Shown: positions 8,593-51,045 of the stretch, piece by piece
Layout: each line of letters opens with the position of its first letter
Position numbering within the stretch: the first letter of the stretch is position 1
Origin: a bacterium
GTDB taxonomy: Bacteria; Hinthialibacterota; Hinthialibacteria; Hinthialibacterales; Hinthialibacteraceae
DNA length: 64,000 bases
Direction: 5' to 3'
Assembly (NCBI GenBank): GCA_963662285.2
Contig: CAXXMV010000006.1
Location: 352,001 to 416,000, forward strand
Position numbers and translations under genes: made by a program
Notes under the pieces: generated by a model
What the model saw: the letters and a program-made list of their open reading frames with translations, nothing else
Told to the model about the DNA's origin: nothing
The model's database searches: none

Positions 8593-8605
8593 AGGTGTTA
8601 AATCC

Positions 8606-10348: not shown

Positions 10349-10365
10349 GAGAGCGTTAGAAGAAA

Positions 10366-12141: not shown

Positions 12142-12179
12142 TATAGATCGGTGCTTTAGCACACTCTATGAGGTGAAAC

Positions 12180-13571: not shown

Positions 13572-13594
13572 TCGAAGCATTGCGAGATGAATCC

Positions 13595-13697
13595 ATGAAT
13601 TTGAGCGACGATATGATTTTTGTACTTAACGCCAGAAATGGGGAAAATTATGGATTGTAAAGCAGCGGCTTGTGACCGATTGGGGTACTCCCGTCAA
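13595..13697 (+). pseudogene. Frameshifted PAS-domain remnant paralogous to PAS1 of 12180..13571
   Basis: MNLSDDMIFVLNARNG(fs)KIMDCKAAACDRLGYSRQ aligns with LELSTDLIFIVNAKSGEFTDCNKTACDTLGYSRT. Confidence 0.65.
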
Positions 13698-13733
13698 CCA
13701 TTTTTTCAAGTTCACAATAACTGCCTTAAATGG

Positions 13734-17180: not shown

Positions 17181-17279
17181 GCATATCAATGTTTATATAT
17201 AGGGTCTTTTTTGAAAAGAATTGAACAAGGTACAACGGACTGTTGCGTTTTCTGTTTCATATGACAATAGCTGTCCACG

Positions 17280-22480: not shown

Positions 22481-23772
22481 GGAATTGTCCATAATTAAGT
22501 TGAACATTTAGGGGTTATATAATAGTTCCATTCCCCATGAAAATCATTTGTGAATAAATTTATATTTTGTAGTTCTTCATCCGTAATTTTAATACCTTTT
22601 TCGTATTTATTAGTATCAAGTTCGACCATAATATTTAAACCGTTTTTTGTAGTCGTGCTACCAATGAGATTTACAATTACCTCATGGCTAATCAAAGGTT
22701 TTCCTCTCCAATTCATACTTATGTGAGAAAACATGCGGTGTTCAATCTTATTCCATTTGCTGGTTCCTGGAGGGAAATGACACACGGATATTTTTAAGCC
22801 CGTTTCAGTCGATAAATTCTGCAAGGCGATTTTCCACAAACGAACACGGTAGCCATTGCTCCCTCCACAATCGGCTGTTATCAAAAGTTCTTTTGCTTTT
22901 GGATAAGCATTCCTGCCCATTTTATTCCACCAACGGCGAATCGTTTCGACTGCAAATTCAGCTGTATCGTGATCCGTGCCGACGCTCACCCAACCTTTAT
23001 CTGCCGTTTGGTCATAGACGCCATAGGGATTTACTTTGCCTTTTTCTTTATCTACAAAATCATACACGCGAACCGATTCAGGCTTACCCTTTGGACACCA
23101 TTCACGCCCTTTGTTTATGAAGTCTCCGACGAGTTCTTTTTTCTTGGTATCCACAGAAATAACAGGTTGCTTTCGACGCTGCAACTGAGCAACTCGCGCA
23201 CAAATAAAATGGAATTGTGCGTCTCGATCAGGATGTTGTTTTCCCTCTTTCGTCTTGTTGTTCGCTTGTAAACTGTAGCCTAATTCAGCCAGAAGATGTG
23301 CAACTTTTTGGCGTTCAATTGCATGACCTTGCTCTTGCAGGGCCGCCGCAAGTTGGCGAACACTTTTACATGTCCAACGTAGCGGGGACTCGGGGTCGCC
23401 ACGTGTTGATGGCTCTACTAATTGTTCAAGGTCATTCAATACCGTTGAGTCGGTTTCAGTAATTGGTTTTCGACCCCCTCCAGAAGAACGTATTCGACCA
23501 ACTTTTTCGGGAGAAAGATAGTCCGATTCAAAAAGATTTTTAATCCCCTGGTGAATGGTTGTACGTGATAGTCCTGTAACTCTGGACACAACGGAAATCC
23601 CGCCATGACCTAGCGATTTTGCTTCCGTCGCCGCCCAAAGTCGTCGCGATTGTTCATCCAATATTGGCTTGAGCAACATGTATTTTTCTTGTATAGTAAT
23701 TTCCGCATCTTTATACATGTAGTAATTATAGCATGGGTAATATATATGTTCAAGTTATTTATGGACAAATCC
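22481..23772 (-). mobile_element. ISAzo13-family insertion sequence (1292 bp)
   Basis: 27-bp imperfect terminal IRs: GGAATTGTCCATAATTAAGTTGAACAT vs revcomp GGATTTGTCCATAAATAACTTGAACAT (24/27). TTA direct repeats at 22478-22480 and 23773-23775. Single transposase gene. Confidence 0.95.
22495..23718 (-). CDS. ISAzo13-family (Rhodopirellula-type) DDE transposase
   Basis: RGDPESPLRWT, HPDRDAQF, ISVDTKKKELVG, ITADCGGSNG, HFPPGTSKWNKIEHRMFS, FHGEWNY. Intact 407 aa, with the stop codon inside the IR. Confidence 0.95.
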   Translation of the reverse strand: MYKDAEITIQEKYMLLKPILDEQSRRLWAATEAKSLGHGGISVVSRVTGLSRTTIHQGIKNLFESDYLSPEKVGRIRSSGGGRKPITETDSTVLNDLEQLVEPSTRGDPESPLRWTCKSVRQLAAALQEQGHAIERQKVAHLLAELGYSLQANNKTKEGKQHPDRDAQFHFICARVAQLQRRKQPVISVDTKKKELVGDFINKGREWCPKGKPESVRVYDFVDKEKGKVNPYGVYDQTADKGWVSVGTDHDTAEFAVETIRRWWNKMGRNAYPKAKELLITADCGGSNGYRVRLWKIALQNLSTETGLKISVCHFPPGTSKWNKIEHRMFSHISMNWRGKPLISHEVIVNLIGSTTTKNGLNIMVELDTNKYEKGIKITDEELQNINLFTNDFHGEWNYYITPKCST

Positions 23773-24063
23773 TTATGTGGAAATTTCTGTTGAAGATTCA
23801 GGAGTGGGTATCGAGGAGGATAAAAAAAATCAAATTTTTGAACCGTTTTTTACAACAAAAGAATCAGGGAATGAAACCGGATTAGGATTATCCATTGTAT
23901 TTGGAATCGTAACACAACTCGGCGGTATGATTGATGTTGAAAGTGAAAAAGGAAAAGGTACATTATTTAAACTCTTGTTCTCACGCATTATCCATGATGT
24001 ATAATCATAGAAGGGCTAAGAAATGCAGACATAAATAATGCATGTGATAAAGGATAAATAATT

Positions 24064-24453
24064 ATGACGAATAAATATCACTTAAAGGCTAAGACTGTTC
24101 TTATTGTTGATGACGACCGGGTTATACGATTGATTCTAAGAAAGCATTTATCGAAATTAGGCATGGTAATAGTCGGTGAAGCTGCGACTGGACTTGATGG
24201 AGCCTATATGTTCGACAAATATCACCCAGACGTTGTTTTACTGGACGTCCAATTACCCAAAGGGAGTGGACTAACAATTCTCAAACTCATACACGAAATT
24301 AATCCAAAAGCAGTCGTCATTATGCTTACTGGCGATACGTCTGAAGATGTTATTAAAACCGCCATCAATTTAGGCGCGTATGACTATATTTCTAAAAGAG
24401 CCAATGATCTTCCCGAACGTCTTGCTGAATCATTATTAAAAACAATCAAGTAA
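24064..24453 (+). CDS. Single-domain CheY-like response regulator
   Basis: VLIVDDD, VLLDVQLPKGSG, IMLTG, GAYDYISK. AAGGA SD. Confidence 0.9.
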   Translation: MTNKYHLKAKTVLIVDDDRVIRLILRKHLSKLGMVIVGEAATGLDGAYMFDKYHPDVVLLDVQLPKGSGLTILKLIHEINPKAVVIMLTGDTSEDVIKTAINLGAYDYISKRANDLPERLAESLLKTIK

Positions 24454-24979
24454 TTGTATTTTGCGCATGCAGATTGAATAGTTTATGTATATTCAGGGTG
24501 AAAAGTGAATTCTGCTAAATGATGAACCGAGAACGCGACTGGCTAACAAAGGGAAATAACTACGGGACTTGCAAGGGATTGCTTGAATATGTCCATATCA
24601 ATCGGAATTTGATCTGATCGAACCGTTTTTCAAGACTCGCGCAACCATTCATGATGAATTTCACATAGTCCTCCTGTTCAAGATTGGATGACTGGATTCT
24701 ACAATGAGGATGAGCTATATATTCAACTGTAGTGTACGAGAATTATATTGGATATTCAAAAACAGTTGAGCAGGATTAGTTTTAGCGCTGTGCAGCCTTA
24801 AAAACAGTTGAAAATTCTTGGTTATTATATAAAACTATGTGGGTTCTATGTTTATGGGTTGTGAAAATTGATTAGATTTTTAGAAAAAAAACTGGATTAT
24901 TTAAATTTTCTGGCTATATCTATATATAACCATGCATTAGGCTATGTCTTACGTTACTAGTTCAAAGGGGAGGGCTATC

Positions 24980-27900
24980 ATGACCTTGAGGATTGTAGGG
25001 TTGAATGGCGGATTAGGCGTGGCGCAAAGAATAATATCAGTCGTGAAGACGCTTTTTACAATCTTTCTACCACTCACTTTTTTATATGCTATATCCGCCA
25101 ATGCCCAGATTCCGCCGATAAAAACCCCGGTTCCAATCATCCACACTCCAACGCCAACTCCGATTGTTATACGCACTTCCGACCTGGAAATTTCTGACTT
25201 GGAAATCAAAGAATCACTATTGATAGCCTCTACTATGGAAGAAGCGGTTCTCCCCATATCATTAATTGTCACGAAAACAAACATTACGGATATCTCTACA
25301 TTAACGATCAAATTTTCACTTTTGGATTCCGGTGGTATAGAAGACGCATCATGGACTATCAGCATCCCGGAAATATCCGTCCTCGAAACCACCAACAAGT
25401 TGGAACTTGATCTGCCGCTGACTGATTTTACTCCTCTGGGAATAGATAGTTATACATTGATCGCAGTGGCTGAACTTAAAAGCCTGATTTCAGAAAAAAA
25501 TAAGGGAAACAACACGACTAGATCTATTGCTACGGATCTGCTGCAGACCAGCGGAACGCTCTGGTTCGGATCGATTCAGACCACTCTTGATCCGAGCACC
25601 GTTTTTACGATTTCGCCAACAATGTTAAACGGCGCGGCTCAATTCGGCGACCAAACCGTATCTTTCGGTTCGCTGACTGTTGATCGCGATTCATCCACTC
25701 TCGATCTTAATGTCATATCTGGAACAGCCACATTTCCTGATATCGATCCTCATACAAGCAATGATTGGGATTATCAACTGACGGATTGCTATTTGAGCAA
25801 AGACGGAGCGTTCGCCAACGCAGCGCTCTATTTTCCCGAAACTGTTTCGTATCGATTGGCTTCTACTTCAGGTCACGCGTTTCGAAAATATCCACTCGAT
25901 CTGGGTGAACAGGCTTTAGATCAAGACCTGGCTCTGATTGAAACCGAAATAGAAATCACTGAAAGCATTGTATTGTATTCCGAAACGCTGCCTCTTTATT
26001 TCAATGGCGACTCAGCTCTTTTCGAACCTGTGGGCAGTTTGTCATTAGTAAATCCAACCGCAAAATACGTACATGCATCCCGTATCGCTATCCCTTCAGG
26101 CGACCGCGCCACTAATGACGGTATGTTTAAGACAAGTTGGAGTACTGGCGCTATCAGTGTTACTGCCTCTGGACTACAAACTGATTTGACAGGCGCTTCA
26201 GGCCAATACCGCCCGGCGTTTCCCCATAAAACCGATGTCGTCCACGGAGATGTGAGCGTGGCGATTAGGGATGGTTCAATCGACCCATCCAGTTCGATCT
26301 CGTCATTGGAGTTAAAGCAAACATCGGGAACCAGCGCCTGTGAAGGTTCTGAAGCCGAACTGACATCGCAATTCGTATTCGATGATTCCGTCTCTCTTGC
26401 TCTCGATGGAGGTATTGCTCACCAAGCCGATATGTCGTCTTCATATACATTCGCGTTCAACACCTGCATAGGTGAAACACTGAGCCTGGCGGCCTGGTAT
26501 CAACCCGGTTTTATTCTGCGTACCACGGCGCCCTCCAGCGCGCTTGATGAGGTTGACCGTTATCTCCTGGCTGGTCGTTCCACGACGTCCATTGATTTGT
26601 ATTATTACGGTGAAGAGTCATTCGTGGCGGGAGAGGGCTATTACGCCGGGATCAATTTCATGCCCGACCACCTGACTGGTATGGCCGTTACTGTTGATAT
26701 CGGCGATGACTCACTCGGTATTACGCTTAACGAAGGAAGCAAGTTTTACATCCGGGGAGGCGGCTATACCGGAACGCTTGATGGAACCCTTGGAGCGGAT
26801 ACTAATTTAGAGCTCTATCCCGATCCACAATGTAGTAATCAGGGATATCAGATAGAACTCACTTCATTCGGGCAAGCTTATCTGGACAACGAATCCGAAG
26901 GGTTGGACTCGAAGATCGACGGGGAGGTCGATATTCCTTTCCCCTCTCAGATCAACATTCCCTTCGATGATATGACGCTAAGTCCATGCGGAAACTTCAC
27001 ATCCGGACAAATCCCCGAAGATGAACAGAACGTCACTCGTACGCTGGCTTATTGGCTCGCGGATCTGCGCCTTTCAACTATTGAGTTCGAACTACGTGAA
27101 GAAAGTTCACCCGACGATGACCGCACATTGTGGATATCCTCCGTCAATCATGTGGATGGTCTTGATACCGATCCATTGATGCAAATCAACCTTCGGCCTT
27201 GCGGAACGATTGCCAAGTCGATGGCAGCCGAGCCAGTTGATACTGCGTTAGATGGATATGGAACAACAATCGAAATATTATACTTGACTGAATATGATCC
27301 AAACGATGGAACGACGCCTAATGGTTTCTATTCGTTCATCAACTCATTGGACGTGCCGTTTTTCGATCCGCCCCGCGTACATAGCCAAATCCGTCCTGAT
27401 ACGCACCGTCTGGCGGATGGTTCGCCTTGGGACGACAGTACCAACGCCGACTCGGATGGCGATGGTTGGCCGGACAATTATTCTCCGAATGCAAGCGACA
27501 GTCTCAGCGATCAGTTTTATAATTACAGCGCTGACCGTTTGATTACAATGCATACGGAAATCGGCGGCGTGATTCCTTTGAATTACGAAGTCAAATACAA
27601 TCCTTCCGACATGTCGTTCAAATCGAGCGAAAGCATCGGGCAGGATTTGCTCGTTATTGATATTGATTCCGAAATCAGAAATCTTAATCAGACCCATGCG
27701 GAAATAACTTTCGGTCTGGAGGTATCGGGAATACCCGAAATCAATTTCTCCAGTCTGGCTGGTGATTTCAGCGATGATATCCAGGAACTAATCTTCGACG
27801 CCATTCGCGACAAACTGGACGAAGTTTCAGAATCGCTCACTGGCGATATGTCAGGAACATTGCGCCCGATTCTAAAGCAATTAATTCAACCTCATGTAGA

Positions 27901-29575
27901 AAACGCGGTTGATTCTATTCAAGGTTACGTCGACAAAGCGCCGGACATTCAATCAGTATATGAAATAGAGGTGGACTTGCAGACGGTCGTCGATCAGATG
28001 CTGAGCAACATCGATCTCGAACATGCCTTCGACGCCACTGGCGCAGACGATATGCTGACCGAAATTATCGCTGTGATCGACGAGGTCGTTGCGATTCTGG
28101 AAGATATCAGCGATGCCGTACAAGTAAGTATTGATGACCTGGACGGATTGGCTGAAGACCTGGTCGAACTTGCGCTCGATATTCTCAATATGGCGACGGA
28201 AATCGATATCTATGAAGTTCTAGACAACATAGAGGAAGTGCAACAGCAAATCGCCGAACCTCTCGCTGAAATCATCGACGTTTTAAATGAAGCAAAAAGT
28301 TATCTCAATGATCCGCTGTCACTCTCTTCGACCTATTTCGGCGATCTTCCCGCTTTGAGAGCGAGCATCGACGCCAGCGTGGCTGATTACCTGTTAGAAA
28401 TGACGGTTGATCAAGTGAATACGCTGGATGCTGAAGAGATCACCAACCTGATCCTCGACGGTATCTTCAATAGCGATATGTTCCAGGAATTTAATTCGTT
28501 CGCGTCGGGGCTGCTTATTCCAGTTAAGGAAATGCTCTACGAACAGGCTAACAATCTACTCGATAAATTAAACGATCTGGTTGATAAATTTCTGGAAGAA
28601 GCGCTGGACTTTACCGAAGGCGCGGAAGGCGCGTTTAAGAACCTGAGCAAATTCAAAGGCGCAGAGATGGAAGGCTACGCCGTAATATCCGGCGACGTTC
28701 TTGAAAAACTCCATATCGACGCCTCGCTGGAATTGGAAATCCCTGATGAGATGACCTTTGGCGGTTATCTGGATATCACTCGTTATGAAGTTGAGAGTGC
28801 AGGCAAGTCATGTTTTGACGATTTTGATTCAGGGGCTGTATTGGATATTAGAATCGGCGCCGAGGATATCAGCCTGAATTGGGGCGCATCGGATCTGTCT
28901 GCTACTATCGAATTCGCCTTAATGCTTTACAACGGTAAACCAGTCAACGTCGGCGGCAGCATTATTACCGAAGGCAGTTTGGATTTCGAGACAGTCACCT
29001 TCAGTGATCTGGGATTCGGCATCGCCATTGGTGAAATAGAAAATTACATCTGGGCTATGGGCAGCGGCTCGTTCAACGATTACACGGTGGATGGAGGCAT
29101 ATTCCTCGGTACTTGTTGTACGCTCGAACCGCTTGAGATTATTGATCCCCAGGTCGCATCGCTTTTGACCATCGACGAGATGAGCGGCGTGTTCGCTAAA
29201 GTTGGGGCGTCGATCCCGATCTATAACTACGGTTGTACGCTACGCGTCGCCGCTGAAGCGGAGATCGGGGCGTGGTATTTCGCTGAAGGCCCCACCTATG
29301 GCGGTAAATTAGTTGCTGGCGCCTATGGAGAAGGTCTCTGTCTTGTCTCCGTTAAAGGCGAGATTACATTGATCGGCGGCAAAGAAGGTTCGGACTATTT
29401 CTTCTATGGAGAGGCCTGGGTTGCGGGAGGTACGGGATTCTGTGAGCCGGAAGAATGGGACACGCTGAGCGATGCATTGAACGACAAATGGTGTCTGGCC
29501 TGCGGGGCTTCGCTCTCACTGACTTATAAGCAGGAAGAATGGGATGTCGATTATGATGCTAAATGCAATGAATAA
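24980..29575 (+). CDS. Giant uncharacterised secreted protein (PT linker, CARDB-like domain, beta-rich body, acidic helical segment, Cys-rich beta C-terminus)
   Basis: >1500 aa. Signal-like TLFTIFLPLTFLYAISANA-Q, HTPTPTP, CARDB-like YTLIAVAE..ISEKNKGNNT, DSDGDGWPD. The start is uncertain (24944, 24980 with GGAGG SD, or a later GTG). Confidence 0.75.
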   Translation: MTLRIVGLNGGLGVAQRIISVVKTLFTIFLPLTFLYAISANAQIPPIKTPVPIIHTPTPTPIVIRTSDLEISDLEIKESLLIASTMEEAVLPISLIVTKTNITDISTLTIKFSLLDSGGIEDASWTISIPEISVLETTNKLELDLPLTDFTPLGIDSYTLIAVAELKSLISEKNKGNNTTRSIATDLLQTSGTLWFGSIQTTLDPSTVFTISPTMLNGAAQFGDQTVSFGSLTVDRDSSTLDLNVISGTATFPDIDPHTSNDWDYQLTDCYLSKDGAFANAALYFPETVSYRLASTSGHAFRKYPLDLGEQALDQDLALIETEIEITESIVLYSETLPLYFNGDSALFEPVGSLSLVNPTAKYVHASRIAIPSGDRATNDGMFKTSWSTGAISVTASGLQTDLTGASGQYRPAFPHKTDVVHGDVSVAIRDGSIDPSSSISSLELKQTSGTSACEGSEAELTSQFVFDDSVSLALDGGIAHQADMSSSYTFAFNTCIGETLSLAAWYQPGFILRTTAPSSALDEVDRYLLAGRSTTSIDLYYYGEESFVAGEGYYAGINFMPDHLTGMAVTVDIGDDSLGITLNEGSKFYIRGGGYTGTLDGTLGADTNLELYPDPQCSNQGYQIELTSFGQAYLDNESEGLDSKIDGEVDIPFPSQINIPFDDMTLSPCGNFTSGQIPEDEQNVTRTLAYWLADLRLSTIEFELREESSPDDDRTLWISSVNHVDGLDTDPLMQINLRPCGTIAKSMAAEPVDTALDGYGTTIEILYLTEYDPNDGTTPNGFYSFINSLDVPFFDPPRVHSQIRPDTHRLADGSPWDDSTNADSDGDGWPDNYSPNASDSLSDQFYNYSADRLITMHTEIGGVIPLNYEVKYNPSDMSFKSSESIGQDLLVIDIDSEIRNLNQTHAEITFGLEVSGIPEINFSSLAGDFSDDIQELIFDAIRDKLDEVSESLTGDMSGTLRPILKQLIQPHVENAVDSIQGYVDKAPDIQSVYEIEVDLQTVVDQMLSNIDLEHAFDATGADDMLTEIIAVIDEVVAILEDISDAVQVSIDDLDGLAEDLVELALDILNMATEIDIYEVLDNIEEVQQQIAEPLAEIIDVLNEAKSYLNDPLSLSSTYFGDLPALRASIDASVADYLLEMTVDQVNTLDAEEITNLILDGIFNSDMFQEFNSFASGLLIPVKEMLYEQANNLLDKLNDLVDKFLEEALDFTEGAEGAFKNLSKFKGAEMEGYAVISGDVLEKLHIDASLELEIPDEMTFGGYLDITRYEVESAGKSCFDDFDSGAVLDIRIGAEDISLNWGASDLSATIEFALMLYNGKPVNVGGSIITEGSLDFETVTFSDLGFGIAIGEIENYIWAMGSGSFNDYTVDGGIFLGTCCTLEPLEIIDPQVASLLTIDEMSGVFAKVGASIPIYNYGCTLRVAAEAEIGAWYFAEGPTYGGKLVAGAYGEGLCLVSVKGEITLIGGKEGSDYFFYGEAWVAGGTGFCEPEEWDTLSDALNDKWCLACGASLSLTYKQEEWDVDYDAKCNE

Positions 29576-32567
29576 TTTCAAATTGGCGCTTGTGATTGGC
29601 GGATTGCTTTCGGTTCTGACCGTTGCGTCTTTCGCCCAAGATAATATGGATCGTCAAGGCCCGGTCATTTTCGTCGGGCTGGTGGGAGATGGCGCGTCCG
29701 GCAACAGCAAGGTGCTTCTGCGCTGGTATTCGACGCTTGGCGAAATCCCCTTCAGTAAATTCTCGGTCTATCGTAAACCGGGCGATCCCCACGATCCCGG
29801 AACGTTTACCAAAATCACGGCGACGGAGAAACTAAGAAATATTCCCTTGATCCGAAGCATCTTTGAACGACCGGGTGAAGAGGAGATACTGGCGGATATT
29901 ATTGATGTGCTCAGCGCCATGAGTAACACTGCTATCACTGTGGACAACTACGCTCAACAATTGATTGCACTGCTTGATGGTGAAGATTCCTGCGATTCCT
30001 GTATGGCGCAGGGAAGGCTTTTGGCTCAATTAAACTATGGGGTTTCGATTATTGAGGGCTTGGGCTATCTAGACCGCGTCTCACCAACAAAATACACCTA
30101 CGAACTTCGTACTTCCACCTCTCTGGGAACAGATGATCTAGTCATCGGTCGCATCACTATCGACGCCTCAACCAATACTGAACTGCCTGCGCCGGAGTCT
30201 CCCGATGAGGTGATAATCAATGGCATCCGGGGCGACCGGAAAATATTTCTCCGCTGGGGCGCTTCGGAAGATTTGTCGCTGAACGCGCCGCTTCACTTCG
30301 GTTACAACGTCTACCGGAGCGACGGGGCGATCTCTATGACCGACACGTTTGAAAGCCTGGAGAGCGCTGGACAACTTCAAAAAATAAACCGTCTGCCAAT
30401 TATGCTCAATAATTCAGCAGTGACGGAACGGGATGAAAGTGAACGCTATGATTTCATGGACGACAATCTCTCCTTTGATCCAGAGGGACGCTTGGGAGAT
30501 CGATTTGTTGTCGGCGATCAATATACTTATTGGATAGCGGCGCGCGATTTACTTGGACGCCATGGTGCGCCAAGCGATCCCATTATCGTGACTATCGAGG
30601 ATCGTCGTCCTCCGGCCATACCGCGCGGTTTGAAGGCTGTTGAAGAGCAGTTCGGTGCGGACCGGAGAATCAACCTCGTTTGGAACGCTAATACAGATGG
30701 TGATACAGTCGCCTATCATATTTACCGCTACCGTTGGTATCACCACACCGGACGAACCGGATCTTTTACCGATGAAGGCCTGGATTACGGCGGTTTATCG
30801 GAAGGCTATCTGACCACGGTTCTCCATACCGCCAGTGATACTGTGTCATACCGCGATACGGATGTCGGTTTGTCTGACCACGAAAGTAAAGCGTTTTGGT
30901 ACTGCGTGTCCGCTATCGATGCGTCTGACAACAGCAGTCCGCTATCGCCTCCCGTACGCGGCGTCCTCTACGACCGTGACGCTCCATCCCGTCCGAAAAC
31001 AATCCAAATCTGCACGACCCGCTTTGTCTGCGAGCCAAAATTCGAGTTGCTCAGTCAAACTGAGATTAAAACCGATACGACGATTGTTTTCCATTTAGAA
31101 CGAATGGATCAGCGAATCATTGAAACCAAAGTCGTAAAAATAGATAATTCGTTGAAATCACTTTTACACCAGGAAATTTTCAGCAAAAACAACGTTCAGA
31201 CCGCAACGGATACGATCCACAGCAGCGTAACTGGCGAAGGAATGGAAATAAATTACTATTTCTCCTTCAAAACGGTTCTGGGTGAATGGTGCGGCCCCTA
31301 TGAACTGCCCAGGAACTTGTTGGACTTGCTGAAGCATAACTCTAAAAAGCAGTTCGACATTCATGTCCCGATCTACCTGCATCCGGATGCAATCTGCTCG
31401 GATGCAACAATATCTGATCGTTTGCCGCATGTATCATCAGTCGATGGCGGCGCGTCTCCCTTAACCGTTACCGTCACCTTAACCGATGACGCCGAAGGGG
31501 CGATACTCTACCGTGCTGAAGACTGCACCGACTTCCACCGCGTCATTACCGAACGCGCTGCAGAAGGCGAAACTTCGGTTACGTTGGTGGATACCATCCG
31601 CCCCGGATCGACTTCGATAATATGCTATGGCGTACGTCTTTATGATGGCAGCGGCAACCTTAGCGGGATGACCTATCTCGAAAGTCGCGTCGTCTTTGCC
31701 GGCAATGAATCCGTTGTTCCAACTGTTGACGCTATTACATCAGCCGGAACTGATGCTTCACCCGAAGTGCAGATCCGCTGGTTTGGCCCATCCGAAGGGA
31801 TATCCGGTTACCGGATTCACTTTGCTACCGGATCATTCGCAAAATCCGGCGTCTTTGGCGACAGCGGAATAAACGTCATTAACAGCGCAACCAGTATCTC
31901 GTCAATCCATACAGTGGATGAAATCTACTACAGCGAAGAGACCGGGCTTTGGTCGATTCAGTTGGCCTCGCTTGATGACCTGGGCAATATTCCTTTGCAG
32001 ACCAATACGCGATACCGCGTCTGGGTAAACGGAATCGATCCGCTGGGAAACACTATCGACGGTAAGAATACCAAACTTTTTACCTGGACCGCAGAAGAAT
32101 CTATAGAAGAACGCCTGAACTGGCCGGTTCGCGATCTACCGGATCATACATCTGGTCTTCCTGTCTACAATACGGTAGGCGAATTATCCAGTCCAACCGC
32201 CATGTCAGTGAAGAGCATCTCTATTCTATTGAGCGATCCAAGTCTGCTTGGACAAAATGATGAATTTAATCCTCTTGAACATCTGGAAATCGATTTACCA
32301 TTCCTGGTCTATCGCAAGCGCGTTGATATCGCCGGGCAGCCCTATGTGCAGATCGGCCCGTTGATAGAAACTATTGAGACCGATCCGGCAAGCGGTTTGA
32401 TATCCGATCCGCTGATCTATGCGACTTACAACGCGGCGTATTATATGGACTACGTTGGTTTGGTTAAAAACGCATCGTACCGGTATATAGTTGTCGAATT
32501 GGACGAAAACGGCGAACTGTCTCTGGTTCGCGGACCGACTGGCGATGTCACCGTCACTTTTGATTGA
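29568..32567 (+). CDS. Secreted multi-fibronectin type III-like protein
   Basis: Signal MNNFKLALVIGGLLSVLTVASFA-Q. Fn3-like motifs (LLRW..FSVYRK, FLRW..GYNVYRS, YTYWIAARDLLG, PPAIPRGL..NLVW..YHIYR, YCVSAIDASDNSSPLS). ATG overlaps the upstream stop. Confidence 0.8.
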   Translation: MNNFKLALVIGGLLSVLTVASFAQDNMDRQGPVIFVGLVGDGASGNSKVLLRWYSTLGEIPFSKFSVYRKPGDPHDPGTFTKITATEKLRNIPLIRSIFERPGEEEILADIIDVLSAMSNTAITVDNYAQQLIALLDGEDSCDSCMAQGRLLAQLNYGVSIIEGLGYLDRVSPTKYTYELRTSTSLGTDDLVIGRITIDASTNTELPAPESPDEVIINGIRGDRKIFLRWGASEDLSLNAPLHFGYNVYRSDGAISMTDTFESLESAGQLQKINRLPIMLNNSAVTERDESERYDFMDDNLSFDPEGRLGDRFVVGDQYTYWIAARDLLGRHGAPSDPIIVTIEDRRPPAIPRGLKAVEEQFGADRRINLVWNANTDGDTVAYHIYRYRWYHHTGRTGSFTDEGLDYGGLSEGYLTTVLHTASDTVSYRDTDVGLSDHESKAFWYCVSAIDASDNSSPLSPPVRGVLYDRDAPSRPKTIQICTTRFVCEPKFELLSQTEIKTDTTIVFHLERMDQRIIETKVVKIDNSLKSLLHQEIFSKNNVQTATDTIHSSVTGEGMEINYYFSFKTVLGEWCGPYELPRNLLDLLKHNSKKQFDIHVPIYLHPDAICSDATISDRLPHVSSVDGGASPLTVTVTLTDDAEGAILYRAEDCTDFHRVITERAAEGETSVTLVDTIRPGSTSIICYGVRLYDGSGNLSGMTYLESRVVFAGNESVVPTVDAITSAGTDASPEVQIRWFGPSEGISGYRIHFATGSFAKSGVFGDSGINVINSATSISSIHTVDEIYYSEETGLWSIQLASLDDLGNIPLQTNTRYRVWVNGIDPLGNTIDGKNTKLFTWTAEESIEERLNWPVRDLPDHTSGLPVYNTVGELSSPTAMSVKSISILLSDPSLLGQNDEFNPLEHLEIDLPFLVYRKRVDIAGQPYVQIGPLIETIETDPASGLISDPLIYATYNAAYYMDYVGLVKNASYRYIVVELDENGELSLVRGPTGDVTVTFD

Positions 32568-32580
32568 GGCGAATACAATC

Positions 32581-35500
32581 ATGAAAACACTCTATGGATT
32601 AATGTTCCTCGTTCTCGTACTCACGGCAACGTCTCTTAATGTTGAGGCGAACGCTTCCCGCGTGGCCGTCGGTGATATCAACGGCGACGGCATTGACGAC
32701 CTTCTTATAGCAACAACAGATTTTCTGGTTGTGGCCGAAGCCGTAGGCGACGGGACATTCATGCCTGGAGAACGTATAACGCTTGATCCCGGACAACCCA
32801 TAGAAGCTTCGTTTATTGAACTGCTAGGAAATGGGCAACTCTTTACCATGGCGGCCTATTCAGACCTGGGCGGCGTGCAGGTCAATAGGGGAAACAACCA
32901 GTTTCCCATTCGCAGTTATGGAATGGGAGTGGAACTGAGCCGAATTATTAGAATCCCTCAAACCAGCTCCTCCGATTTGATATTCACTAGTTTTGATACT
33001 TCAGAAAAAGGTATCCTGATTGGCTACAAATCTTCGGAACAACGCTTTGTCGTTATTCATGACCTCGAATATAGTGCGCCGGTTCAGGATGTTGCATTCA
33101 GTACGTTGACTGATAGCGATCTGTATACCCTGGCGGTTTTACACGATCAATATCTTAATATCTACGCTTATGATGCTTCATCCGGCTTCGCAACGCCTGT
33201 AGAGATTCAACTGACGGATAATGAAGCCTCAAAGATTGAGTCTGGATCAATCAATGGCAACGCATTGCCAGACCTTTTGCTTTGGAATCCTGAATCGTCA
33301 ACTGTCTCTACCGTGAGTTGGATTAGCGGATCGAGTTGGAAGACAACACCGTATACGCTGCATACTCCAGTTAGCATACTGGCAGTCGGCGACGTGGATG
33401 GAGACGGTTTCGCCGATCTTCCTTCAATCGCTTCGGCGCAGAATGAAATTATTTTCTATCACAACCAAAACGGCTCTACGTTCGCATCATCCAGTTTGAC
33501 GTTGCCCTTCTCAATGGATGAAAACGAAGAAGCCGCCATTCAGTGCGGAAATTTTTCCACAACCCAAAATGGATTTGTTGTTGTTGCGCCAGACTCAGAC
33601 AGCGGGCCGGAAATCTACTTTGTACCAGTAGATAATGGAAGCATCTCAACCACTGTATCCTCTACCATCTCCACCCCGCCCGAAAAACCCTGCAACTACG
33701 CCAACGTCGTGATCCGCGACGCCTCCAATCCCGAACTGATCTACCGCAGCGAACGCATCCCGGATTGGACTACCGGCGCAACGATTATTACAAACAAACT
33801 ATCCGTGCAGCATGAACAAGATACTGGCTCGGGACTGGCGCTAGCAACTGATATTATAATTTCCGGCATTCATAGTAATATCTGGCCGAGTGAAATTGAG
33901 GTCGTTCCGAATCAGCAAGACGACGACCAATCATTATTCTTCCTCACGCCTTCAATGCCTATTACGTTGCTCAAGACGTTAATTACGCCAACCGGTGGCA
34001 CGCACGGTCGAACCGTTACTCCAGTGCTTGAATCACGGGAAAGCGCTTCGATTTACTATCGTAAAAACGGTGGATCGTGGAAACTTTATGATCCAGATGA
34101 AACTCAAATTTATTTCTACCGAAGCGGCTCGCTCGATGCTTATGCAACTTATGGACCTTTTATCAGTTCGATGGCCTCAGCATCCTATATCGTCGATCAA
34201 CCTTACGACGCCGATTCGGATTACGACGGCCTCCCCGATTTCGTTGAAGAAGCATACGGCCTTAATCCACTTGATGGCGACGTCGACTCGGATGATGATG
34301 GCTGGCGCGACCTGGATGAACTGATTCGGGAGACCGATCCTTTGGATGCCGATTCATTTCCCGCAGATTCTGATATTCCCGATGGAGACGGCTGGTCGGA
34401 TTTCGACGAGACGCTGCGCCAAACCGATCCCGGCGATCCAGAATCTAATCCTACGGTCAGCGGTTTGGAAGTTCCCGAAGCAGTGGTTCCGATAGAAATC
34501 AACGAGTCGGCGCTGAACACTCCCACCGGAGTCGATGGTTCTTCTCTTAAGGCCAAACTGCTTACAGGATATGAAATTGATTCAGCTACATTAGACAATG
34601 CGTCATCCCTGCGCATGAGAGTGGATCATCCCTCGATATCGGGTTATACGGATGGTGATGACGCCGAAATCGTCTTATTGACTTATGTTCCCCGGAAAAC
34701 TTATGATCCTCAAATCGACGGTGATGAATCGACTACTGCGGAAGAATGGATCAAAGCCTACGCAGATGAAATGCATACTTCATTGTTCGAGAAGCGGACG
34801 GCGCTTATGCATGACGCCGAGACGACAGCCGTAGTACTCGCTCTAGCGCGATTTATGGAACAGGCGCTATCGCTTACTGCGCCGAACATAATTTGGACCG
34901 CATCGGGAACCGTTTCGCAAAGTGACATCAACCGCCTTGAACAAACCGTGAACCTGGATGAGGCCGCTTCCTATTTGACCGAACACATCTCCGAAACCTC
35001 ATTGCCCGGCATGGTGCGCGCATATATCGAGTGGGGCAAAACCGAAGATATTCGCGGGACTATCATCGAACGTTTGGCCTGGATTCTGCATGGCTGGACG
35101 CCGGACGAAAGCGATGCGCCAGACGCTCTTCCCGCCAAAACGCTTTCATCCAATCACGCTCAACAACCAGCGGGAATCGATTTCACATCGATTCTTGACG
35201 AGTTGGATACGCTATTTTTGTCGATCCCAACCCTTGAGATAGAATTGGAAGGCGTATTGGCATGGGACGAGAGAGATTTTGTTACCCTCGTTCATGACGG
35301 GATTGCCTATGGATTCAATGATGAAGGAGCGACGCTCTCGACCGGTTCAGAAGTACGTATTAAAGGACGCGTAGTTGTACCGTCTCCCTACAGTGATATC
35401 GTCTGGGTTAAAATGACGGCGCTGGAACAAATCGATAATCCTTTGTTGAGCGTTAACACTATCGACTCTGATAACAATGGCCTTGCAGACCAGTGGGAAG

Positions 35501-35658
35501 CCTTCTATTTCCCTTCCGGCGCATTGCCCACTGACGACCCTGACGAAGACGGTTATACCAATAAGCAGGAATATGATGGTTATTCTGATCCTACCGATGT
35601 GAATTCCATCCCCTCAGCATCCGGTACTCGAATACGCAATTGGTTCTTGTATGAATAG
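32581..35658 (+). CDS. Secreted FG-GAP/VCBS repeat protein with Ca-binding DxDxDG (TSP3-like) repeats
   Basis: Signal MKTLYGLMFLVLVLTATSLNVEA. VGDINGDGIDDL, GSINGNALPDL, VGDVDGDGFADL. DSDYDGLPD, DSDDDGWRD, DGDGWSD, DSDNNGLADQWE, DPDEDGYTN. GAGG SD. Confidence 0.82.
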   Translation: MKTLYGLMFLVLVLTATSLNVEANASRVAVGDINGDGIDDLLIATTDFLVVAEAVGDGTFMPGERITLDPGQPIEASFIELLGNGQLFTMAAYSDLGGVQVNRGNNQFPIRSYGMGVELSRIIRIPQTSSSDLIFTSFDTSEKGILIGYKSSEQRFVVIHDLEYSAPVQDVAFSTLTDSDLYTLAVLHDQYLNIYAYDASSGFATPVEIQLTDNEASKIESGSINGNALPDLLLWNPESSTVSTVSWISGSSWKTTPYTLHTPVSILAVGDVDGDGFADLPSIASAQNEIIFYHNQNGSTFASSSLTLPFSMDENEEAAIQCGNFSTTQNGFVVVAPDSDSGPEIYFVPVDNGSISTTVSSTISTPPEKPCNYANVVIRDASNPELIYRSERIPDWTTGATIITNKLSVQHEQDTGSGLALATDIIISGIHSNIWPSEIEVVPNQQDDDQSLFFLTPSMPITLLKTLITPTGGTHGRTVTPVLESRESASIYYRKNGGSWKLYDPDETQIYFYRSGSLDAYATYGPFISSMASASYIVDQPYDADSDYDGLPDFVEEAYGLNPLDGDVDSDDDGWRDLDELIRETDPLDADSFPADSDIPDGDGWSDFDETLRQTDPGDPESNPTVSGLEVPEAVVPIEINESALNTPTGVDGSSLKAKLLTGYEIDSATLDNASSLRMRVDHPSISGYTDGDDAEIVLLTYVPRKTYDPQIDGDESTTAEEWIKAYADEMHTSLFEKRTALMHDAETTAVVLALARFMEQALSLTAPNIIWTASGTVSQSDINRLEQTVNLDEAASYLTEHISETSLPGMVRAYIEWGKTEDIRGTIIERLAWILHGWTPDESDAPDALPAKTLSSNHAQQPAGIDFTSILDELDTLFLSIPTLEIELEGVLAWDERDFVTLVHDGIAYGFNDEGATLSTGSEVRIKGRVVVPSPYSDIVWVKMTALEQIDNPLLSVNTIDSDNNGLADQWEAFYFPSGALPTDDPDEDGYTNKQEYDGYSDPTDVNSIPSASGTRIRNWFLYE

Positions 35659-35732
35659 ATAAATAGCCGTTTGTTATCATATTTGTCTTAGAAAAAGCCA
35701 ATCACTGAACTTTCCCCCTGGAGATTTGTATT

Positions 35733-37577
35733 ATGAAGATGGCGGCGCTCTCACGTATCTTGATTATCCTCATTGTCTCATTTGGTTTTTGCATAACCTC
35801 ATACGCTTCAGACTGGCGTGATATCGAGAACGGTTGGGAAATCCCAACCGAGTTTTACGCCGATCAGCCTTATATAGTTAAGACCAATGACGGCGCGTGG
35901 CTCTGCATCATGACTACCGGCGCCGGGCATGAAGGTCAGAGCGGCCAGCATGTCATCACCATGCGCAGCACCGACCGGGGCAAGACCTGGGCGCCGCCAG
36001 TGGATGTTGAACCAGCTCAAGGACCTGAAGCATCCTACGCGGTTTTGCTCAAAGTTCCCTATGGTAGAATCTACGCTTTCTATAATCACAACACCGATAA
36101 CCTGCGCCAGGTTAAAGCCGACAATCCCCCATATAAAGATGGCTATTGTCAACGGGTTGATAGCCTGGGATATTTCGTCTTCAAGTACAGCGATGATAAT
36201 GGAAACTCATGGTCAAAACAGCGCTATGCAATACCTGTGCGAGAGATGGAGATCGACCGCCAAAATCCATATCAAGGCGCAGTGCGTTTTTTCTGGAACG
36301 TGGGTAAGGCGTTTTCACATGTTGGTTCAGGATTCGTTCCACTACACAAGGTGGGAGGTTTCGGTAGGAATTTCTTCACCCGCAACGAAGGCGTATTGTT
36401 ACGCAGTCCTAATATTCTGATAGAACGTGATCCTCAAAAAATTGAATGGGAAACATTACCTGAAGGCGACATCGGTCTGCGCACCCCGCCGGGCGGCGGC
36501 CCCATATCGGCTGAACAAAGTTTTTCGATTCTAAGCGACGGTTCGTTCTACTGCGTATACCGCTCGGTTGACGGACATTCAGTATTCACTTATAGCCGCG
36601 ACCAGGGTCGCAGTTGGGATACTCCACAATACAAGCGATATGCTGACGGAAGTTTGATGAAACATCCCCGCGCCGCCAATTTCGCCTGGAAATGCTCCAA
36701 TGGAAAGTACCTCTACTGGTTTCATAACCACGGCGGTCGATCATACGATGACCGCAACCCGGTCTGGTTATGCGGCGGGGTAGAGAACGATTCACCTCAA
36801 GGCCGCATCATCCAATGGTCGCAGCCTGAGATCATTCTCTATGATGACGATCCAGCTGTGCGCATGAGTTATCCCGATCTGGTTGAGGAAGACGGCCAAT
36901 ATTTCCTGACCGAAACTCAGAAGACCATTGCGCGGGTGCACCAGATCGATCCGGAATTACTGAATGCCCTATGGCGCCAATTCGATGAGCGTCGCATTAT
37001 TACTGATGGGCTGATACTCGATCTGCCAAACCAAACGGCCATAATACCCGGCGAAACCCAGGCGCCGGAACTGCCTAATCTGATTTCACAAAACACCAAG
37101 AGACCCGAACCGGATACATTTCCTATAAACAACGGTTTTTCAATCGTTTTTTGGGTGCGGTTTAATTCGTTGAAGCCAGGCATGATCATCGCCAGCAACC
37201 AGACCGATGCAGGTCAAGGATTCTGCCTGCAAACCACAAACCGCCAAACCATAGAACTGGTATTGAACGATGGCCGAACTGAAAATAGCTGGGACTGCGA
37301 TCCTGGATTACTCAAGCAAAACAAACTACATCATATAGCCGTCATTATCGACGGCGGCCCCAAAATAATCACTTTCATCATTGATGGTAAACTATGCGAC
37401 GGTGCGTCATCACGCCAGTTCGGCTGGGGGCGCTTCAATCCCAACCTGCGTTCAGCACACGGCGGCGATATGCTGCGCTTGTCTAGCAACTTTGATGGGA
37501 ACATAAAAAAATTCCGTATCTACAACCGGCGCCTGCTTACCTCAGAAGCCATCAGCAATTACCGGGCGGGGCTATAA
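35733..37577 (+). CDS. BNR/Asp-box (sialidase-like) beta-propeller protein with C-terminal LamG/ConA-like domain
   Basis: Signal peptide. Asp-boxes RSTDRGKTW, YSDDNGNSW, YSRDQGRSW. MSYPDL. LamG motifs (FSIVFWV, HHIAVIIDG, FDGNIKKFRIYNRRL). Confidence 0.82.
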   Translation: MKMAALSRILIILIVSFGFCITSYASDWRDIENGWEIPTEFYADQPYIVKTNDGAWLCIMTTGAGHEGQSGQHVITMRSTDRGKTWAPPVDVEPAQGPEASYAVLLKVPYGRIYAFYNHNTDNLRQVKADNPPYKDGYCQRVDSLGYFVFKYSDDNGNSWSKQRYAIPVREMEIDRQNPYQGAVRFFWNVGKAFSHVGSGFVPLHKVGGFGRNFFTRNEGVLLRSPNILIERDPQKIEWETLPEGDIGLRTPPGGGPISAEQSFSILSDGSFYCVYRSVDGHSVFTYSRDQGRSWDTPQYKRYADGSLMKHPRAANFAWKCSNGKYLYWFHNHGGRSYDDRNPVWLCGGVENDSPQGRIIQWSQPEIILYDDDPAVRMSYPDLVEEDGQYFLTETQKTIARVHQIDPELLNALWRQFDERRIITDGLILDLPNQTAIIPGETQAPELPNLISQNTKRPEPDTFPINNGFSIVFWVRFNSLKPGMIIASNQTDAGQGFCLQTTNRQTIELVLNDGRTENSWDCDPGLLKQNKLHHIAVIIDGGPKIITFIIDGKLCDGASSRQFGWGRFNPNLRSAHGGDMLRLSSNFDGNIKKFRIYNRRLLTSEAISNYRAGL

Positions 37578-37611
37578 AACTAAACTCTTCGTCATAACAA
37601 CAGCAGCCATA

Positions 37612-40600
37612 TCACGCCTGAGGTTTTGATATCCGGTACATTATCACATATAACAAAGGCACAATGATTAAGGTAAGCACAGTTGCAAAAGTCAAACCAA
37701 ACATAATAGCGACTGCCATAGAATCGAAAAAGCCATCAGATACTAACGGGATCATAGCCAATACCGTCGTCATCGATGCCATCATAACCGGTCGCATACG
37801 ACTGATACAAGAGTGAATCACCGCTTCATAGGGTTCCTTGCCCTCACGGATTTCCACACCGATTTGATCTAAAAGAACAATGGCGTTTTTGATAAGCATA
37901 CCTATTAAACTTAATGCGCCTAACAACGCCAGAAATCCAAATGTTTTGCCGGTTATCAACAAGCCCAATGATACGCCAATGAATGATAAAGGTAAAATCA
38001 ATAATATAATAAACGGCGGCCTAAAAGCATTGAATAATCCAACAATAACCAACGCAATTAATATCATCGATATCGGCAGTTGTTGAAACAAAATTGACTG
38101 AGCCTCATTGGAATCTTCCGACTCTCCAGCCCATTCCATCGTATAACCTGAAGGTACAGGGATTGCTTCAATTTGCGATTTGACGGATGATTCCAAATTT
38201 ACGGCATTACCATCAACTGGCTCCGCTTGAGCCTTTATAGTCAAACGGCGGTTAAGGCGTCGAATAATCGGGTCTTCCCATTGCACTTTGATATCATCGA
38301 CGACTTGCAGCAATGGCGTACTAACCGAACCATATCCGTATACCGGAATATCACCGATATTCTCCACGGCAAGTTTTTCATCTTCCGGCGCCTTTAACAG
38401 AATTGGCATCAGTTCATCGTTCTCGCGATAATTTCCAATAGGAATTCCATCAGTAATACGACGCAATGACATGGCGATATCCTGACGCGTGACATAAGCT
38501 CGTCTGGCGCGGGCTTGAGAATATAGCGGCGCAACGATTTTCACCCGTTGACGCCAGTCGTCGCGTACTTCCTTGGCATTAGGATCAGATTTCATGATCA
38601 CTTTGGCCTGGTCGCAAAGTTCTCTCAACACATCTGCATCGGGGCCGCTGAAACGCGCTTCAACCTTAAACGAAACCGACGGACCAAGCGGAAACAATCG
38701 CACCCGAGGCTCAGCTTGGGGAAAACTGACTGATATATAATCCTCTACCTTATCAACTAAATCAAAAACCTCTTCAGGCGTCTCAACATTTACCAGAATC
38801 TGACCATAACTGTTGTTGGGTAGTTCCGGCTCATAGGGCAAGTAAAAACGGGGAGGTCCAGAACCGATGCAAGTGGCAGTGCTGACAATATCAGGAATCC
38901 CGGACAAATGCTTTTCAATCTCTCTTAAGTCTTCTGATACAGCATGAATACTCGATCCTTCCGGCAGCCAATAATCTATAATAAACTGAGTACGGGTCGA
39001 TTTAGGGAAAAACATCTGATCAACATACTGAAACGAATACATCGCGCTGAAAAATATCACCAGAATCAATGCAATAGTTGTTATGCGCCAGCGTAGCGCC
39101 ATTTCCAGAATAGCCTGATACCAACGAAATATCCTGCCCGCATAGGGATCAACGCCTTTTTTTGATTCTTTAACTTTAAGAAACATCTCGCAAAAAACCG
39201 GAGTTTGCACCATGGCCAAAACCCAACTTATAGCCAATGAGATAGCAACTACCTTAAATAAATCTGAACAATAATCTCCAACATTATTGGGCGAAATATA
39301 AATCGGGAGAAACGCGAAAATTGCAATCAAAGTAGCGCCCAGCAGAGGCATTCCGGTATCTTTAGCCGGTTGAGTAACAGCTTTTTTGGGAGATTCGCCA
39401 TTCTGCAAGCGGATCAAGGCGCCTTCAGTTATAACAATGGCGTTATCCACCAGCATTCCCATGGCGATAATAAGCGAACCCAATGAGGTGCGATGAAGAT
39501 CAATTTTCAAAAGCAGCATAACTATGAAGGTGGCGAGGATGGTGAAAATCAATCCTCCCCCGATCAATAATCCACTACGAACTCCCATAGTCAACAACAA
39601 GACAACCACGCAGATAATGACTGATTCTATAAGGTTAACTATAAAATCATCAATCGCTCTTTGAACATCGTCGGATTGAAACGAGACTACGCCTATGTCC
39701 AATCCATGCGGAAAACTTTCCATCAGTTCTTCCAAATGATGATGAACCGCTTCCCCCATGTGAATGACATTACCGCCGGATACGGTTGATACGGCAAAGC
39801 CGATTGCGTTTTTACCGTTGAATCGCATCATAGAAAAGGGGGGATCAACGTATCCCTTGGTTATCTTGGCCACATCGCGCATCAGAATCAGATTATCAGG
39901 CGCGCTGCCCCGGATAACCAGGTCGCCAATCTCATCAATCGACTGAAATAAGCCGGTCGGCGTCAAACGGATTCTTTCCGAACCGACTGTCAAAGAACCG
40001 GCATCCACTATCTGATTCTGTCCCTGTAATGTTTCAACTATCTGTCCTGGATTAACTCCCAGATCGGCCAACCGTTCGTTGGAAATTTCTAAATTTACGC
40101 ACTCTTGCTGATCGCCCCACATCTCCACCCGCGCCACATCATCAACTAATAATAATTCTCTTTGGATGATATTGACGTAATCTTTCATCTCGGCAGTAGA
40201 AAATCCATCTCCCGTCAATGCCAGGAAGACACCGTAGACATCGCCAAAATCATCATATACGATTGGCGGATATGATCCGTCGGGTAGAGTAGACTGTGCT
40301 TCTAATACTTTACGGCGCAATTCATCCCAGATTTGAGGCAGTTTACGGCTGGGGATCGATTCCTTGATGTCGGCGTACACATAGGATAATCCCGCTTTAG
40401 AAATCGAGCGGACTTCATCCAGCGCCCCGAGTTTTTGCACCGCTTTTTCGATTTCATCGGTTACCTGCTCTTCCACTTCTTTAGGCGAGGCGCCGGGATA
40501 TGCAGTGACAATCAACGCTGTCTTTATTGTAAATTCAGGGTCTTCTAATTTTCCCAATTTTGAATAAGACATCAAACCTGCAACCACTAACAAGCAGGAT

Positions 40601-51010: not shown

Positions 51011-51045
51011 AGTAGTTGTCAAAATAATGTTCTGACGAGACTTGT

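Follow-up and report, generated by a model that had tools for sequence, protein, structure and literature searches.

We describe a three-gene unit from a Hinthialibacterota bacterium (GenBank assembly GCA_963662285.2, contig CAXXMV010000006.1), located in a 64,000-nucleotide stretch of that contig that we refer to as the window, and propose a model for the structure that its products may build. The genes, here called A, B and C (open reading frames (ORFs) 1 to 3; Table 1), form one conserved, co-inherited unit of an unnamed family. The predicted structure of A has at its C-terminus a large amphipathic beta-meander of the lipid-facing kind, and we tentatively favour a reading in which A, B and C make up one envelope-attached structure, with A held at the outer membrane by this C-terminal beta domain, as possible rather than probable. 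The first-pass annotation of this DNA had likewise taken the trio for a surface complex, with ORF3 as the anchor and ORF2 as the scaffold, and had left a toxin-like machine as an option.

The three co-oriented frames, with their 8-nt overlap and 13-nt gap, were recovered as that annotation had given them. Their stop-bounded listings on the plus strand are 24944..29575, 29544..32567 and 32491..35658, and the chosen start codons are likely the right ones, because a GGGGAGGG stretch lies just 5′ of the ORF1 ATG at 24980, the ORF2 ATG (29568) falls inside the final codons of ORF1, whose TAA occupies 29573-29575, and a GAGG stands between the ORF2 TGA, which ends at 32567, and the ORF3 ATG at 32581. 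A signal peptide had been assigned to each protein and, read by eye, all three N-termini are indeed Sec-like, with a hydrophobic core followed by ANA/Q (in A), SFA/Q or VEA/N; by the same reading none of these signal peptides has a lipobox Cys. Neither A nor B of the window matches a Pfam family at cut-off or an NCBIfam family up to E 0.1, which agrees with the earlier failure to recognise any catalytic motif.

Close homologues of A, B and C carry the label Candidatus Hinthialibacter antarcticus or belong to metagenome-assembled genomes (MAGs) labelled 'Omnitrophota', which places the genome in Hinthialibacterota (OLB16). A is present in 20 of 41 related genomes, with full-length matches to B and C directly downstream on the same strand. 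Within the phylum it occurs in 20 of 35 genomes (12 of the 18 of high quality), and the module is therefore accessory. Of 16 near-relative loci, 13 show the three genes intact and in sequence; in the other three A is split into four ORFs, B is interrupted by stops, or A-B is followed by an unrelated gene with C missing. Nothing besides A, B and C is common to the 16 loci. The two loci with a broken member, L021 (G028:C12) and L023 (G027:C52), one with TGA/TAA stops in B and the other with A present as four adjacent ORFs, may be decaying copies or assembly errors.

The same arrangement extends well beyond the phylum. Species-representative genomes of Verrucomicrobiota and allies were searched with the largest A subfamily, yielding 142 relatives, and 79 loci were retained; these span Verrucomicrobiota, Kiritimatiellae and Lentisphaeraceae, with cultured strains among them. 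B and C were sought in them with hidden Markov models built from Hinthialibacterota sequences only, and the 52 loci whose sequence runs on for at least 7.5 kb past A were counted, 24 being too short and 3 having no A ORF called. Of these, 47 carry A-B-C, 2 carry A-B only, 1 carries A and C (its B being hidden by the crude ORF caller) and 2 carry A alone. Both of the last are Roseibacillus genomes that carry a B at another site, next to which no A match was reported. In one of them, G041, recorded as Roseibacillus persicicus, a solitary A, a second A adjoining B and a solitary B are spread over three contigs (C4, C5 and C6), which shows that duplication and splitting of the module can occur. 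In a third subfamily, of 19 metagenome loci, B follows A in all 19 and C follows in 15, the other four contigs ending first. Full-length B and C homologues were found beside A wherever contigs allowed, with junctions that overlap or lie tens of bases apart. Other neighbouring families do not recur, the most frequent being present at 8 of the 79 loci. Conservation of the three-gene order was the check proposed in the first-pass annotation; synteny is kept across phyla, and no described system matches over the full length.

A profile of A residues 440-1531, run against 1.84 billion representative proteins, matched 883 representatives at E <= 1e-3, 727 at <= 1e-10 and 549 at <= 1e-30, mostly of 1750-2300 aa. 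The named sources include Sinimarinibacterium sp. NLF-5-8 (as a 'Calx-beta domain-containing protein'), a Desulfobulbaceae MAG, a Pseudomonadota MAG and Omnitrophota-labelled MAGs, and every source name seen is that of a double-membraned phylum. The Sinimarinibacterium A protein found no relative in the genome contig set. By record title the cultured carriers are Thalassobacterium sedimentorum, T. maritimum, Pontiellaceae B1224 and B12219, Verrucomicrobiaceae E54 and Roseibacillus persicicus. Literature searches found no paper on this three-gene module, and the portion consulted of the paper naming the phylum (PMC9324843) has no occurrence of the terms 'FG-GAP', 'adhesin' or 'fibronectin'.

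The conserved core of A, some 1100 aa, matches no Pfam model in the window protein or in 21 family members, and no NCBIfam model. Searched against the PDB, the sequence of A returned nothing up to E 1 and its profile returned helical-bundle noise only. Two AlphaFold2 models of it were made, one of residues 440-1531 (model 1; 16 sequences, mean predicted local distance difference test (pLDDT) 70.8) and one of residues 850-1531 (model 2; 84 sequences, mean pLDDT 78.9). They agree on an order of beta-rich domain, six strands, acidic helices and 16 long strands running to the C-terminus, model 1 alone covering the beta-rich domain at 440-850. For this tentatively modelled domain the pLDDT means of 10-residue blocks lie mostly at 75-93 across model residues 120-370. 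Along the 22 strands, each of 13-17 residues, a hydrophobic face alternates with one that is charged or Gly-rich, and the last beta domain contains 13% Gly, 12% aromatic residues and nine Cys. The helical insert that separates strands 6 and 7 gave sub-threshold matches only, to phasin, apolipoprotein and ATG17 models. ESM Atlas hits with the best scores, 0.78-0.85, were unnamed clusters or one cluster auto-named 'Laminin G', which is a lead only.

Both ends of A vary among its relatives. The N-terminal 400-900 residues differ among lineages, and FG-GAP domains occur in 4 and Calx-beta domains in 4 of 20 other members scanned. ORF1 had been read as CARDB-like, then beta-rich, then helical; the helices are present in both AlphaFold2 models, and the CARDB likeness is weak in the window protein (E 0.16) and true in the 57%-identical homologue P0005 (E 1.6e-8). 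At the other end, H is the final residue of 43 among 158 members, Y of 35, L of 20 and F of 15. W-D-V-D-Y/F/L ends are frequent in the family; the W-D-V-D-Y form, seen in many Verrucomicrobial members, resembles an insertion signal, and the window's clade extends six further residues past WDVDY, one of them a Cys. A lipobox (L-x-G-C, then a Gly run) is found in 14 of 38 members of a subfamily ending ...SAIH and in 0 of 21 members of the window's clade; members with a lipoprotein signal include P0070, P0072, P0108, P0111 and P0173.

In two independent structure searches of all PDB representatives the top 50 rows were, by title, all outer-membrane or mitochondrial beta-barrels, at Z 9.8-14.4 and 9.7-14.7. 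What A shares with outer-membrane barrels is an up-and-down meander of long amphipathic strands. The 18-strand sugar porins LamB/ScrY score Z 14.2-14.7, the 24-strand usher FimD 11.8-12.6, the 26-strand MtrB 11.4-12.7 and the 22-strand TonB-dependent transporters 9.8-13.6, the last at a root-mean-square deviation (rmsd) of 7.6-10.4 Å. The lowest rmsd values belong to the larger barrels, MtrB at 6.7 Å and FimD at 7.6 Å (range 6.7-8.5 Å). When Foldseek candidates for model 1 were re-aligned, barrels filled 48 of 50 rows, and the lipid-facing beta-belt of apoB100 scored Z 12.8. We count the 22 long strands modelled at pLDDT 75-96, the barrel rows filling the top 50, the alternating strand faces, the Gly and aromatic content and the W-D-V-D ends in favour of a membrane-facing A domain, and the lipobox in one subfamily in favour of envelope attachment.

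B is conserved along its full length, with recurring W...Y.VYR and ARD..G..S motifs that read as Fn3-sandwich-like, and may be a chain of Fn3-like beta-sandwich domains. In two regions its family profile finds PDB Fn3 domains at E 0.004-0.06, namely from fibronectin, chitinase A1 and RPTP-delta, and Pfam fn3 is matched by 2 of 25 family members (best E 7.6e-4), the window's ORF2 having no match; the earlier description of ORF2 as an Fn3 chain and scaffold is therefore plausible and weakly founded. Searched by sequence, B and C gave chance-level PDB rows only. Proteins of about 810-860 aa that belong to another family and are encoded away from any A match only B residues ~150-490 (E 1e-6 to 1e-13) and read as distant paralogues of B's central sandwiches (G011:C26:73758-74978, G005:C160, G019:C29, G006:C274, G007:C8 and G014:C7).

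C combines a variable head with a core that is conserved across phyla. In the window the head belongs to the FG-GAP families, as had been noted, with FG-GAP_3 at 31.6 bits (cut-off 26.9) and FG-GAP at 30.5 bits (cut-off 22.1), and the C profile finds the PVL lectin propeller in the PDB at E 8e-6. Among 19 members scanned, FG-GAP heads are present in 12 and an H-type lectin stands in their place in 3; the head is absent from 7 of the 19 rows of the C alignment (P0038-P0040 and L021-L024). The DxDxDG calcium-binding repeats claimed for ORF3 are borne out by invariant Asp columns in two stretches of the thrombospondin type 3 (TSP3) kind, which are sub-threshold in the window protein, one at E 7.1e-5, and by TSP3_bac matches in 4 of 19 family members. 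In these repeats C resembles MtsD of Myxococcus cell cohesion (NF047639) and the Amuc_1099 pilus-like family (NF042425), with matches confined to repeat motifs: the former reaches 21.1 bits against a cut-off of 800, over residues 535-591 only, and the latter 36.7 bits against a cut-off of 50, over residues 982-1012 only, and C was assigned to neither. Depending on the lineage, it is either A or C that bears an FG-GAP-type head, which suggests that both ends lie in the same compartment.

ORF3 ends in RNWFLYE and is, as first read, the only one of the three with a W-x-x-Y tail. The pattern [DEHNS]-W-x-[LIVMF]-[YFH] followed by at most three residues ends 123 of the 4119 genome ORFs of at least 200 aa, compared with 2.2 ± 1.4 at random internal positions, and the tail type can also be written (T/P)xV..[DNE]W[SEMQ][LIM][YFH]. 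A signal-peptide-like start is found on 108 of the 123, by a crude test that 2004 of all 4119 ORFs also pass. The tailed set includes ORF3 and a 1967-aa LTD/CotH/PA14 protein at window 453-6356, and leaves out ORF1 and ORF2. As the tail is missing in most C homologues beyond the near clade, it appears to be a lineage-specific address label and not the module's anchor, and constitutes an undescribed short C-terminal tag.

Table 1. Features of the three-gene block and of the DNA just upstream, in window positions; residues (res) are counted from the chosen ATG of each gene
Feature	Position	Strand	Remarks
AT-rich intergenic region, presumed promoter region	24454..24979	.	526 bp, GC 0.354, 5′ of ORF1
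Gene A (ORF1)	24980..29575	+	1531 aa from chosen ATG; exported protein; full-length homologues down to E = 0
A signal peptide	24980..25108	+	res 1-43, ...AISANA/Q; by-eye reading
A variable head	25109..26296	+	res 44-439; Pro/Thr linker, then beta-rich, weakly CARDB-like
A conserved beta-rich domain	26297..27526	+	res 440-849; conserved DxDxDG loop at ~res 824-829; invariant alignment columns
A predicted strands 1-6 of amphipathic beta-meander	27542..27727	+	res 855-916
A predicted acidic amphipathic helical insert	27758..28639	+	res 927-1220, ~300 aa; 23% Asp+Glu, 4% Lys+Arg
A predicted strands 7-22	28652..29572	+	res 1225-1531; Gly- and aromatic-rich, 9 Cys; pLDDT 75-96
Gene B (ORF2)	29568..32567	+	999 aa from chosen ATG; exported protein
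B signal peptide	res 1-23 of gene B (29568..32567)	+	by-eye reading
Gene C (ORF3)	32581..35658	+	1025 aa from chosen ATG; exported protein
C signal peptide	res 1-23 of gene C (32581..35658)	+	by-eye reading
C FG-GAP/VCBS beta-propeller head	32650..33693	+	res 24-371; some lineages only
C conserved core	33694..35610	+	res 372-1010: beta domains, TSP3 repeats, helical domain, second TSP3-like stretch
C TSP3 calcium repeats	34186-34455	+	res 536-625
C second TSP3-like stretch	res 958-1012	+	within conserved core region
C tryptophan tail RIRNWFLYE	35629..35655	+	C-terminal end

The model that we favour, tentatively, for the A-B-C unit is as follows. A, B and C would each be exported by Sec, B and C being produced in step with A by virtue of the tight coupling of the genes. 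A would form the base, its 22-strand meander contacting the lipid of the outer membrane, most likely as a closed and inserted beta-barrel, with the beta-rich domain and the variable N-terminal head projecting off the membrane. B, as a rod of Fn3-like sandwiches, and C, as an arm with a calcium-binding TSP3 core that bears in this organism an FG-GAP lectin-like head and the tryptophan tail of the phylum, would both dock on A. The outcome would be an acidic, calcium-stabilised assembly, exposed at the surface, whose exchangeable heads (CARDB, Calx-beta, FG-GAP and H-type lectin) may bind glycans, particles or other cells; we count the adhesin- or lectin-type variable heads, the tail common to 123 ORFs and the invariant TSP3 Asp columns in favour of such a surface and ligand-binding role. 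The proposal that ORF3 is the anchor did not hold, as its FG-GAP head is missing in many homologues and its tail is phylum-specific and common to so many ORFs of the genome. Judging from the models, the likely membrane anchor is A, because its 22-strand beta domain is the sole membrane-looking part of the three proteins and some of its homologues are lipoproteins. A binding prediction that set A 440-855 and C 372-680 with B 203-472 as partner, all fragments being guessed, gave a score of 0.00 (mark 0.32) and speaks neither way.

Several points weigh against an outer-membrane barrel. The rmsd of the barrel matches is mostly 8-11 Å over 180-305 residues. At least six of the nine Cys in the beta domain are conserved and the turns are mostly very short on both sides, which is unusual for porins, and an aromatic last residue is found in only part of the family. 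A transmembrane barrel would make superfluous the lipid anchor seen in some A members, and the usual barrel topology places both barrel ends in the periplasm, so that the rest of A would not lie at the surface. The lipid-binding proteins also compete for the match: for model 1 the best Foldseek E-values, 1.2e-4 to 8e-4, went to MTP, lipovitellin and vitellogenin (probability 0.11-0.30, TM ~0.05), and for model 2 apoB100 was the top Foldseek row (E 3.8e-3) and its beta-belt came first on re-alignment (Z 15.3, barrels filling 46 of 50 rows). Given the poor barrel rmsd and an apoB100 score that is equal or better, closure of the sheet is conjectural. A published barrel census covers proteins of 120-1040 aa only and, in the part consulted, describes non-prototypical barrels with other C-terminal motifs (PMC10629564); the absence of A from that census and its odd termini are accordingly not decisive. 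These scores could instead mean that the beta domain is an open amphipathic belt which, together with the acidic helices, wraps lipid or another hydrophobic cargo, B and C being accessory and the whole periplasmic or released. The order of beta, helical and amphipathic-beta parts in A is that of the large lipid-transfer proteins (apoB100, at Z 12.8-15.3 over the two models, vitellogenin/lipovitellin and MTP), its helices repeatedly match apolipoprotein and phasin models below threshold, the hydrophobic faces span the entire length of the strands, and conserved Cys are many. We nevertheless consider this unlikely, though far from negligible, as the Foldseek probabilities are 0.06-0.30 with TM ~0.05 and rmsd 33-64 Å, no sequence relation to A is seen, neither Vitellogenin_N nor another lipid-transfer Pfam family is matched by the window's A or 21 family members, and all 50 top rows of both all-PDB searches are membrane barrels. 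To our knowledge the apoB/vitellogenin/MTP superfamily has no bacterial member.

If A is a barrel of the usual topology, the remainder of A could, with B and C, form a periplasmic calcium-binding lattice or tether that links outer membrane and wall. With 22 strands and an insert after an even strand, the N-terminal part, the insert and the C-terminus fall on one side of the sheet, and in known barrels the side bearing both termini is periplasmic; B and C have Sec signals only, and TSP3 repeats also occur in the periplasmic linkers of OmpA-like proteins. Such a scaffold seems quite unlikely to us, since fast-changing lectin or adhesin heads, and a tail that C has in common with many ORFs with signal-peptide-like N-termini, are typical of exposed proteins, and the patchy presence of A in the phylum fits an accessory trait rather than a core envelope part. 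A might also be a new class of 22-strand translocon that exports B and C across the outer membrane and retains both, its helical insert acting as a gate in the manner of the usher plug, an inserted domain which the insert after strand 6 recalls; this we rate as rather unlikely. An N-terminal adhesin-like passenger, a helical segment and a C-terminal beta domain on one Sec-exported chain resemble type V secretion, whose translocators have 12 or 16 strands compared with 22 in the model of A. A differs further in lacking Autotransporter, POTRA and ShlB Pfam matches, in scoring only Z 10.1 with EspP and 9.7 with Hbp, and in having two partner genes. A three-component toxin or pore-forming machine, of the Tc-like or tripartite alpha-pore-forming type, is suggested by three large components that are predicted to be co-transcribed, by one FG-GAP-like propeller and by low-ranked Foldseek rows for Hbl, AhlB, SmhB and Vip3. 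These rows reach a probability of 0.08-0.21 only, Pfam shows neither RHS, VRP1 or SpvB nor any toxin or enzyme domain in A, B or C, all three proteins bear Sec-like signals, which Tc toxins are not known to have, and the carriers are free-living polysaccharide degraders; the toxin-like machine of the first-pass annotation thus found no support and is very improbable. That the three are independent adhesins which merely lie side by side would accord with the adhesin-type domains in each and with the rare genomes in which a solitary A and a solitary B occur, and is hardly credible given a gene order and close spacing that persist over at least four phyla amid ever-changing flanking genes, with full-length B and C beside A wherever contigs allowed.

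Against described systems, the reading of A as the outer-membrane base of an A-B-C assembly finds partial likeness only. A has no sequence or Pfam relation to outer-membrane barrels, from which it differs in the poor rmsd, the short turns on both sides and the many conserved Cys noted above, in carrying an acidic helical insert of 300 aa and an N-terminal part of 850 aa, and in having no plug, TonB box or chaperone gene. It was rejected as a TonB-dependent transporter, there being no Plug or TonB_dep_Rec Pfam match in the window's A or 21 family members, and the unit as a chaperone-usher system, as no Usher or PapD Pfam match is found in A, B and C and no further neighbour gene is conserved. 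A classical autotransporter (type Va) was set aside likewise: no Autotransporter Pfam match was found (window protein E 0.1, 21 members E 0.01) and the model is 22-stranded. For the Tc/ABC toxin complex, the VRP1, RHS and SpvB Pfam families are absent in A, B and C and their homologues. By analogy the unit resembles porin-cytochrome complexes of the MtrCAB type and other outer-membrane complexes encoded by three genes, in which a three-gene unit encodes one large barrel and two exported partners at or in it. A-B-C differs in having neither haems nor homology, its partners being ~1000-aa Fn3-like and TSP3/FG-GAP proteins.

The setting of the block in the window is distinctive in composition. 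Its GC content, 0.487, exceeds that of the signalling cluster upstream (0.413), as had been judged by eye, and of the 7.29-Mb genome (0.440), and only 1.7% of genome windows of equal size have GC as high. The AT-rich region of about 500 bp described upstream was also found (Table 1). Promoter and terminator scans were uninformative, giving 21 sites compared with 22.0 ± 4.3 in shuffled sequence, with no excess, and 14 compared with 12.5 ± 3.2, and there is no Rfam match within window 22000-38000. An intact-looking ISAZ013-type DDE transposase (22495-23718, minus strand, Pfam E 1.4e-148) lies 1.3 kb upstream of the module, between a His-kinase/response-regulator cluster and a lone response regulator at 24064-24453. 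The top-1.7% GC, this insertion sequence (IS) transposase and the patchy presence in 20 of 35 genomes are suggestive of horizontal transfer and go no further, as an amino-acid composition rich in Asp, Gly and Ala could likewise lift the GC of the block.

Neither the upstream response regulator nor the transposase was accepted as part of the module, as they are not conserved beside A-B-C elsewhere. The same holds for ORF4 (35733-37577, plus strand; GC 0.502), which begins 74 nt 3′ of ORF3 and encodes a signal peptide, BNR/sialidase-like repeats and LamG; it was rejected as a fourth member because it does not adjoin the module in other genomes. Elsewhere in the window, 7501-22481 holds a long signalling run, with one FapA-like and one TPR protein beside several hybrid His kinases and response regulators (PAS, Reg_prop, Hpt), and 48455-58326 a glycan-degradation cluster with DUF4861, heparinase II/III-like, double esterase and alpha-N-acetylglucosaminidase (NAGLU) genes.

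The A-B-C unit amounts to some 3500-4000 residues of conserved, co-inherited exported protein that has had no family model, name or proposed role, in hundreds of carrier lineages from Verrucomicrobiota, Kiritimatiellae, Lentisphaerae, Hinthialibacterota, Desulfobacterota and Pseudomonadota. As the module is present in cultured strains, it is testable at the bench now. Should A act as a translocon, the unit would define a new pathway for secretion or assembly that is widespread among the PVC (Planctomycetes-Verrucomicrobia-Chlamydiae) group and other double-membraned phyla. Should A prove to be a new outer-membrane barrel with two obligate partners, the unit would represent an undescribed envelope or surface system in major polysaccharide degraders, whose envelopes are poorly understood.

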